Under the pieces are notes generated by a model that was given only the letters and a program-made list of their open reading frames with translations, did no database searches and was not told the origin of the DNA. This document shows positions 37,692 through 38,195 of a DNA stretch of 64,000 bases, in pieces (positions within the stretch are counted from its first letter, which is position 1; each line of letters opens with the position of its first letter). A program made the position numbers and the translations under genes. Source of the stretch: Octopus vulgaris (Eukaryota); NCBI GenBank assembly GCA_951406725.2, contig OX597836.1, positions 46,128,001 to 46,192,000 on the forward strand, written 5' to 3'.

Positions 37692-38035
37692 CTACCACAA
37701 TGTGGTGATCGAGAAACATTGGCTTTGATGACAATTGACCAAAGTTCTGTTATTGGTCACATACTAATACAACTCTGTGTGTGTGTGTGTGTGCGCGTGT
37801 GTGTGTGTGTGAGTGTGTGTGTGTGTGTTCACTCACAAGGGTTTTGTTGGCGCAGGGCTTTAGTAGAAGACGGTCATCTTTCTCCCAGCGTAAACTATTT
37901 CCCTCTCGTTCTGGTCTAACGACCCTCCGTGTTTGTTTCTTTCGGTTCCCTTGTATGTCTCCACTGTCCTGTTTTTGTTCCCAACTTTGACCCTCCATAA
38001 AATCCCAAATTTTATTTTAGAATTTATGGGAGCAA

Positions 38036-38111
38036 CTGTCTTTGATGACTCATATTATCGCTGAATGCTCGAAATGAGGAGTAGATAGACAGCCGACAAC
38101 AGATGAAGGGT
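38036..38111 (+). ncRNA. Rearranged hammerhead, copy 3 (divergent, core-mutated)
   Basis: Stem III ctcat(38049-53)/atgag(38074-78); H=A at 38054; stem I ttatcg/cgacaa (one mismatch); CAGATGAA at 38100-07; stem II gggt/gctc; outer helix ctgtct/agacag. Confidence 0.6.
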
Positions 38112-38195
38112 CGTTTCAATGTTTAAAAACTAGTTTTATAGAATGTTATATATTAATGTTTTCACACATTAATTTGTGTAGGTTGAGCTGAACTC

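Follow-up and report, generated by a model that had tools for sequence, protein, structure and literature searches.

The question raised by this locus was whether a repeat fragment in the genome of Octopus vulgaris holds a hammerhead ribozyme whose blocks are in an unusual order and, if so, which strands form its helices. The window, by which we mean the whole stretch of 64,000 nucleotides that was analyzed, is rich in microsatellites and comes from a 2.8 Gb assembly. A preliminary description had proposed a rearranged hammerhead here (copy 3), together with two others in the same window (copies 1 and 2). We consider it probable, from comparisons of sequence, that copy 3 is a dead copy of a non-coding Penelope-like element in which the hammerhead core is opened between A9 and G10.1 and stem II is completed by an upstream strand, and that intact members of the family cut themselves.

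A decayed copy with rearranged hammerhead blocks

The hammerhead blocks of copy 3 occupy 38030-38111; the cleavage site comes first, then GAAA and then CUGANGA, as in type SGC (Table 1). Every helix and box motif listed for copy 3 in the preliminary description was present at 38036-38111, and its central claim of a rearranged hammerhead was borne out: the S, G, C block order is there, and relatives carry a restored core. The repeat fragment itself starts near 37876, and not at 37905 as first described.

The core of copy 3 is not intact. There is an A at U4 (38101), and stem I has an A-C mismatch. The change from CUGA to CAGA had been taken to mean that this copy is probably dead, and its relatives had been expected to restore CUGA and TTGTCG. 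T stands at 38101 (CUGA) in 27 of 29 distinct relatives, and the G at 38057 that makes TTGTCG in 24; at 38046, where copy 3 has T, A was found in 28. At the level of the family, the core letters CUGANGA, GAAA and NUH are all present. Because copy 3 is cut short at both ends and has lost U4, it is likely a truncated, decayed and dead family member.

Table 1. Coordinates in the window of copies 1 to 3 and of the elements of copy 3, with proposed assignments.
Feature	Position	Strand	Remark
Copy 1, sister subfamily, same wiring	7048..7147	+	
Copy 2, young sister subfamily, intact core	8264..8361	+	
Family A repeat fragment, non-coding, Penelope-like (copy 3)	37876..38117 (approx.)	+	both ends cut short; complete unit ~700 nt
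Conserved T-rich leader	38008..38029	+	
Upstream strand GAGCA, proposed stem II 5' strand	38030..38034	+	G10.1 at 38030
Outer helix P0, 5' strand CTGTCT	38036..38041	+	
Internal loop, 5' side (YGAAGA in relatives)	38042..38048	+	T at 38046 in copy 3
Stem III 3' strand CTCAT (38049-53) and NUH triplet AUA	38049..38054	+	predicted cut 38054/38055
Stem I 3' strand TTATCG	38055..38060	+	one A-C mismatch in copy 3
Stem II 3' strand TGCTC, GAAA box, stem III 5' strand ATGAG (38074-78)	38066..38078	+	GCTC-GAAA at 38067-74
Internal loop, 3' side GAGTAGAT	38079..38086	+	AGUA, probably loop-E-like; GAGTAGA at 38079-85
P0 3' strand AGACAG (38087-92), one spacer base, stem I 5' strand CGACAA (38094-99)	38087..38099	+	
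Core box CAGATGA, U4 lost	38100..38106	+	CTGATGA in 27/29 relatives
Extra A and GGGT tail (GGGT 38108-11)	38107..38111	+	rival partner of stem II 3' strand

There was no hammerhead match in Rfam at the copy 3 site. Over the whole window there was none among the 150 listed of 352 matches, all of which were simple-repeat noise. Nested folding of the site was unremarkable (z 0.53; folding z-scores overall ranged from 0.5 to -1.7), as expected because the proposed fold is a pseudoknot. The absence of an Rfam match and the folding scores would be in keeping with fortuitous pairing in a repeat that holds no ribozyme, an explanation to which we give almost no credence. A five-helix descriptor had two matches in the window (8272 and 38030; copy 1 was missed) and none in 20 local doublet shuffles of it, and 126 matches in 1.39 Mb of loci chosen for the repeat, compared to none in the same loci reversed. 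Two core patterns matched the genome 5536 and 4391 times (about 10,000 matches; by eye, about one tenth of the first 100 listed for the 5536-match pattern were other repeats), compared to 9 and 34 times for the reversed patterns. The shuffle and reversal controls, with the covariation described below, refute chance pairing.

The repeat family

A genome search with 37860-38130 gave 3764 candidates, of which 40 were scored; these relatives, the window itself excepted, had 88-92% identity. The family to which copy 3 belongs (family A) was found in thousands of pieces in contigs from four sequencing runs with four organism labels, and the majority letters at 38046, 38057 and 38061 in those contigs were the same as in the relatives. 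The unit measures approximately 700 nt and is non-coding. It is rich in pyrimidines, has a TA-rich stretch, and ends in the word CCAA-GTAAGT. Copies are 5'-truncated, occur as partial tandems and inverted pairs, and adjoin (TA)n. Judged by its anatomy (5' truncation, tandems, inverted 5' copies and (TA)n flanks), family A is a non-autonomous Penelope-like element. Tandem units 700-900 nt apart are common, yet tandems are a minority of copies. Copy 2 sits in a unit of approximately 850 nt (7740-8640) with direct terminal repeats that end in GTAAG-like words.

Copy 3 had been put forward as independent support for the fold. Copies 1-3 are instead homologous: they fall in one alignment with 63% mean column identity, and one profile finds all three. 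The covariation is therefore within a single lineage, and copy 3 does not represent an independent origin. The proposal that several subfamilies keep the architecture was upheld by compensatory changes in stems I and III. The word GAGTAGA was indeed common to copies 3 and 1 (at 38079-85 and 7106), and is kept in some subfamilies only; it may, as first suggested, make a tertiary contact. AGUA with an opposite GAA, which we take to resemble the loop-E/bulged-G motif, was found in 8 of 14 subfamilies.

There was no autonomous element contiguous with family A, and the family A unit has no ORF. The search for an autonomous parent covered GIY-YIG loci (30 fetched of 150 scored); these were rejected as Neptune-like elements that carry ordinary minimal hammerheads. 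Penelope ORFs near family ribozymes (loci L353, L374 and L122) were rejected as separate neighbouring insertions. Penelope families other than family A in this genome carry an ordinary minimal type I hammerhead.

Several other repeats were noted. Positions 500-535 (+) of the window are an ordinary minimal type I hammerhead-like end from another Penelope family, and the same end stands behind a C/T-rich Penelope ORF that looks intact, in L374 (1-2300). Loci L110-L135 (e.g. L112, 2770-2800) contain a young Neptune-like Penelope family, likely recently active, with many open frames of 781 aa and a minimal hammerhead with a U3-A8 core variant. A third Penelope-type family (L138, L153, L161) has a canonical CTGATGA-A-GGCTG...CAGCC-GAAAC hammerhead behind short internal repeats. 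There are many dispersed SINE-like repeats, in both orientations and with long inverted pairs, at 38200-38400, 8660-8900, 19641-19885 and other places in the window. An unrelated short repeat with 189 candidates starts from (TA)n in L030 (1850-2045).

Stem II is likely formed with an upstream strand

We clustered 210 copies with an intact leader and obtained 14 clusters of at least three copies, with 58 copies in smaller clusters. At most two copies per cluster were taken (86), 11 that were truncated or deleted were dropped, and L174 was added, giving an alignment (A1) of 76 rows. Stem III was 92.6% paired in these 76 copies, with four of five pairs changed on both sides, and stem I was 90.7% paired, with five of six pairs changed on both sides. 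For the upstream helix that we propose as stem II, pairing was 92.6% and three of five pairs were changed on both sides. The covariation score was reached in none of 500 shuffles, and slid registers dropped to 29-44% paired.

Stem II had been assigned in the preliminary description to GCTC and GGGT, and a 5-bp GAGCA/TGCTC helix was absent from it. The upstream strand of this helix stands one base before P0 and forms five Watson-Crick pairs with the strand before GAAA. Its letters differ between groups (GAGCA/TGCTC in copy 3, GAAGG/CCTTC in copies 1 and 2, and GAACG/CGTTC in a third group). All five pairs were Watson-Crick in 13 of 14 subfamily majority lines, and in those 13 subfamilies the upstream helix was 3.9-8.5 kcal/mol stronger than the helix formed with the tail. 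On the tree, four inherited double changes were found in the upstream helix, on two branches (three of them on one), and none in the tail helix. The upstream strand pairs better and covaries more than GGGT, and it is the sole option in most of the Naiad ends described below. We conclude from the pairing that stem II is likely better formed by the upstream strand than by the 3' GGGT. The helix that joins the far sides of stems I and II is present as P0, and its first strand lies at the 5' end, not at the 3' end as in type SGC.

The tail helix, GGG(N) after an extra A, has four pairs, mostly G-U. It would serve as stem II if this were a type-SGC hammerhead of the ordinary kind, carrying the extra A found in Penelope ribozymes, and the upstream strand would then be an off-switch or supply outer pairs only, as a shared strand that exchanges partners. 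We think this unlikely. The tail helix was 90.1% paired, with G10.1-C11.1 in 73 of 76 rows, and Penelope minimal hammerheads, as described in PMC4209133, typically leave a base unpaired between 9 and 10.1. Position 11.2 is nearly always U and is compatible with both partners. In the copy 3 lineage, which has the strongest tail helix, the upstream G is less strictly kept: the proposed upstream G10.1 was G in 60 of 71 copies and the tail G was kept in 67 of 71, a comparison in which the search patterns favour the tail G. However, the tail helix is about 4-8 kcal/mol less stable and would be made last, one of its four pairs was changed on both sides (the outer pair, in 30 of 76 rows), and it has no inherited double change. 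In addition, the tails of squid and coral Naiads in the published entries are unable to pair, and the upstream helix is retained there.

More generally, a stem II strand directly after CUGANGA, in an unbroken block C, is possible but weaker in the family of copies 1-3 and cannot pair in the squid and coral Naiad ends. The subfamilies of copies 1-3 show a tail hairpin, AGGG..YYCU, that is not seen in the Naiad ends. We also considered pairing of the T-rich leader with CUGANGAAGG as an 'anti-core' helix and rejected it, since it ranked only 42-288 of 389 windows in eight copies.

The same wiring at the ends of Naiad elements

Naiads were described by Craig et al. 2021 (PMC8557442) as lacking a canonical hammerhead, with a 'half core' flagged in eight; Naiad_Ovul and Naiad_Esco are flagged 'HHR_half_core' in the supplement. 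We read the Naiad ends in that supplement by eye at 60 of 62 places of one core word, which does not amount to a census. The ends of Naiad_Ovul and Naiad_Obim given there have the order GACACC, P0, TGGT-A, CTGCCC, GGTGTC-GAAA-CCA, P0, GGGCAG-CTGATGA, with an upstream stem II of 6 bp and a tail of 2 bp. The entry for Naiad_Esco, from squid, has the same order, with four of five upstream pairs and a tail unable to pair. In the entries for Naiad_Aacu and Naiad_Anas, which from their names we take to be corals, and in three more, the upstream helix is 6 bp and the tail is unable to pair. Two nematode entries have an ordinary type I hammerhead, and no core was seen in the listed ends of Naiad_Adux and Naiad_Omin.

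The ribozyme form of Naiad_Ovul had 360 exact matches in this genome, compared to none for the control. In 11 of 20 loci, a count that takes in the query, it stands behind the start of the 3' UTR. Remnants of RT motifs were found upstream on the same strand in six of seven extended loci, and the N-terminal GIY-YIG domain was reached in none of the seven. Pfam RVT_1 matched two of five fragments, both below the cut-off.

Naiads, as far as their published entries go, and family A have in common the ribozyme wiring, (TA)n targets, partial tandems and inverted copies. Family A differs from the Naiad_Ovul entry in that there is no clear sequence likeness beyond two short words and no ORF; being non-coding, it does not have the GIY-YIG, CxC and C-terminal RT of a Naiad joined to the element. 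Going by their letters, the unrelated-looking Naiad sequences are more independent support for the fold than copies 1-3.

5' ends of copies accumulate at the predicted cut

In a first sample of 159 copies anchored at the core, 39 started between 14 nt after and 5 nt before the predicted site, and 13 started in the next 35 nt upstream. Because this sample was blind to ends further downstream, a second sample was anchored approximately 140 nt downstream (the first 100 of 2650 matches; 96 recovered and 3 with internal deletions dropped, leaving 93). Among these 93 sister-subfamily copies, drawn from the matches listed, 19 started 0-13 nt after the site, compared to 1.8 expected (Poisson P ~1e-13); the best other 14-nt window had six starts. 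There were no starts in the 40 nt before the site, compared to 4.4 expected. Proceeding upstream, the number of ends per base at risk was 0.0025 (+49 to +134), 0.0040 (+14 to +48), 0.025 (0 to +13), 0 (-40 to -1) and 0.0023 (-165 to -41), so that the step in end density falls at the scissile bond. The truncation peak is 6-8 nt past the site, at TA/CA words. Target microhomology would thus shape the peak, which fits joining to (TA)n. For family A alone the footprint was weak, with 5 of 26 copies starting near the site and 3 of 26 in the next 35 nt. Two tandem copies of the Naiad type start exactly at the predicted site.

We read the pile-up of 5' ends as reflecting reverse transcription that runs off cut RNA. 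Alternatively, the site could be a conserved structure, derived from a hammerhead and no longer catalytic, that binds or terminates the RT; in our estimation this is improbable. Such a structure would fit the 48 of 93 anchored copies that run through the predicted site, and the poor cutting of Penelope minimal hammerheads in vitro. However, the core letters and NUH are all retained while the helices turn over, and the ends cluster just 3' of the scissile bond, where the RT would already have opened the helices, rather than at the 3' edge of the fold.

Rearrangements within the ribozyme were also observed. Inversion junctions lie inside it in L139, L173, L207, L251 and L310; one is at the predicted cut, with the stem I strands giving microhomology, and may record fold-back of a cDNA end. 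In L320, near 1500 (-), the tail of an ordinary minimal-hammerhead family is joined to a copy 3-type family at the predicted cut, a junction that a template switch would leave.

A proposed model and its consequences

Intact family members likely self-cleave, the RNA being cut after NUH. Beyond this, we lean toward a fuller account, in which the ribozyme is a seventh wiring outside the six published orders, the 5' leader gives stem II, a three-way junction replaces the loop I-II contact, and the same ribozyme is carried by Naiads from corals to cephalopods, works in the living animal and fixes the 5' end of the template RNA.

Along the RNA the order is II5', P0 5', III3', cut site, I3', II3', GAAA, III5', P0 3', I5', CUGANGA. 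The core letters thus stand in non-circularly permuted order, and the break in the chain would fall between A9 and G10.1. A three-way junction of stems I, II and P0 would hold the far ends of stems I and II together and take over the job of the loop I-II contact; the ribozyme would in effect be type SGC opened elsewhere. The RT acting on the element, likely that of a Naiad, would be primed at (TA)n and would end its copying at the cut 5' end, so that many short copies would start just past the site. Uncut or circular RNA could be the source of longer and tandem copies.

A single long arm may result from stacking of P0, the internal loop and stem III, in which case a single molecule would have to bend sharply or two units would swap flanks. 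If only strand-swapped dimers formed, the flanks of one unit would complete the core on the hairpin loop of the other. This arrangement is a sub-case of either wiring and is possible, if doubtful. The arm would be 15-20 bp and its far end connects to stem I through 0-2 nt, a geometry in which a straight arm would be hard to close intramolecularly; the common tandem units would supply partners, and dimers are the presumed active form of minimal Penelope hammerheads (PMC4209133). On the other hand, HRIMA-1, with a like junction, cleaves during transcription according to PMC10085705, and the length of the arm is tightly kept, as the U-turn of a monomer would require.

In about half of the other subfamilies, the T-rich leader ends in YAG just before the upstream strand and resembles a 3' splice site; many subfamilies have such a YAG and also GTAAGT at the end of the unit. 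This suggests an intron that ends at the ribozyme, as in Drosophila Penelope. Words of these two kinds (5' splice-site-like GTAAGT at unit ends, polypyrimidine-YAG before the upstream strand) were noted at 7790, 8268-8272 and 8630 of the window and in L090 and L091; splicing or back-splicing at YAG would begin an exon exactly at the ribozyme edge. Subfamily L176 is without GTAAGT.

If the fuller account is true, it breaks the stated requirement for CUGANGA to be contiguous with stem II, brings non-circularly permuted ribozymes into animal genomes, where none have been reported before, and overturns the view of Naiads as elements without hammerheads. The pile-up of 5' ends would be genomic evidence on the role of Penelope ribozymes in vivo. 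Copy 3 itself is decayed, and what it contributes is mainly covariation.

Comparison with known systems

We found no description of this wiring in the literature searched. The block order S, G, C was named type SGC by Eckert et al. 2023 (PMC10085705), who described HRIMA-1 and variants from metatranscriptomes, and their main text reports none in genomes of known organisms. The copy 3 family resembles type SGC, as presented there, in this order and in the short linker from the stem I 3' strand to the stem II 3' strand, and resembles HRIMA-1 in having an additional helix between the other sides of stems I and II. With the upstream strand as stem II, the far-end junction would be the same as in HRIMA-1, that is, type SGC opened between A9 and G10.1. 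In the published type SGC, block C is assumed to be unbroken, with the stem II 5' strand after CUGANGA, whereas here the extra-helix strand and, by our proposal, the stem II strand come from the 5' end. Unlike the type SGC ribozymes of that text, the copy 3 family is found in an animal genome and in thousands of copies.

The minimal type I hammerheads of Penelope elements, as described by Cervera and de la Pena 2014 (PMC4209133), share with the copy 3 family a place in terminal repeats, an extra base after A9 followed by GG, and many diverged subfamilies per genome. Their order is C, G, S; stem II is a hairpin there and stem III is nearly missing, and the order in copy 3 is different. The non-LTR retrozymes of animals (bioRxiv 10.64898/2026.07.22.740005; PMC7229834) are likewise non-coding, hammerhead-bearing, partly tandem and likely moved by a Penelope-like RT. 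They are defined in the bioRxiv text by a type I hammerhead in tandem units, which family A does not have. Compared to these retrozymes, family A, known here from genomic copies, has another wiring and units of 700-900 nt, and its copies are mostly dispersed and 5'-truncated.
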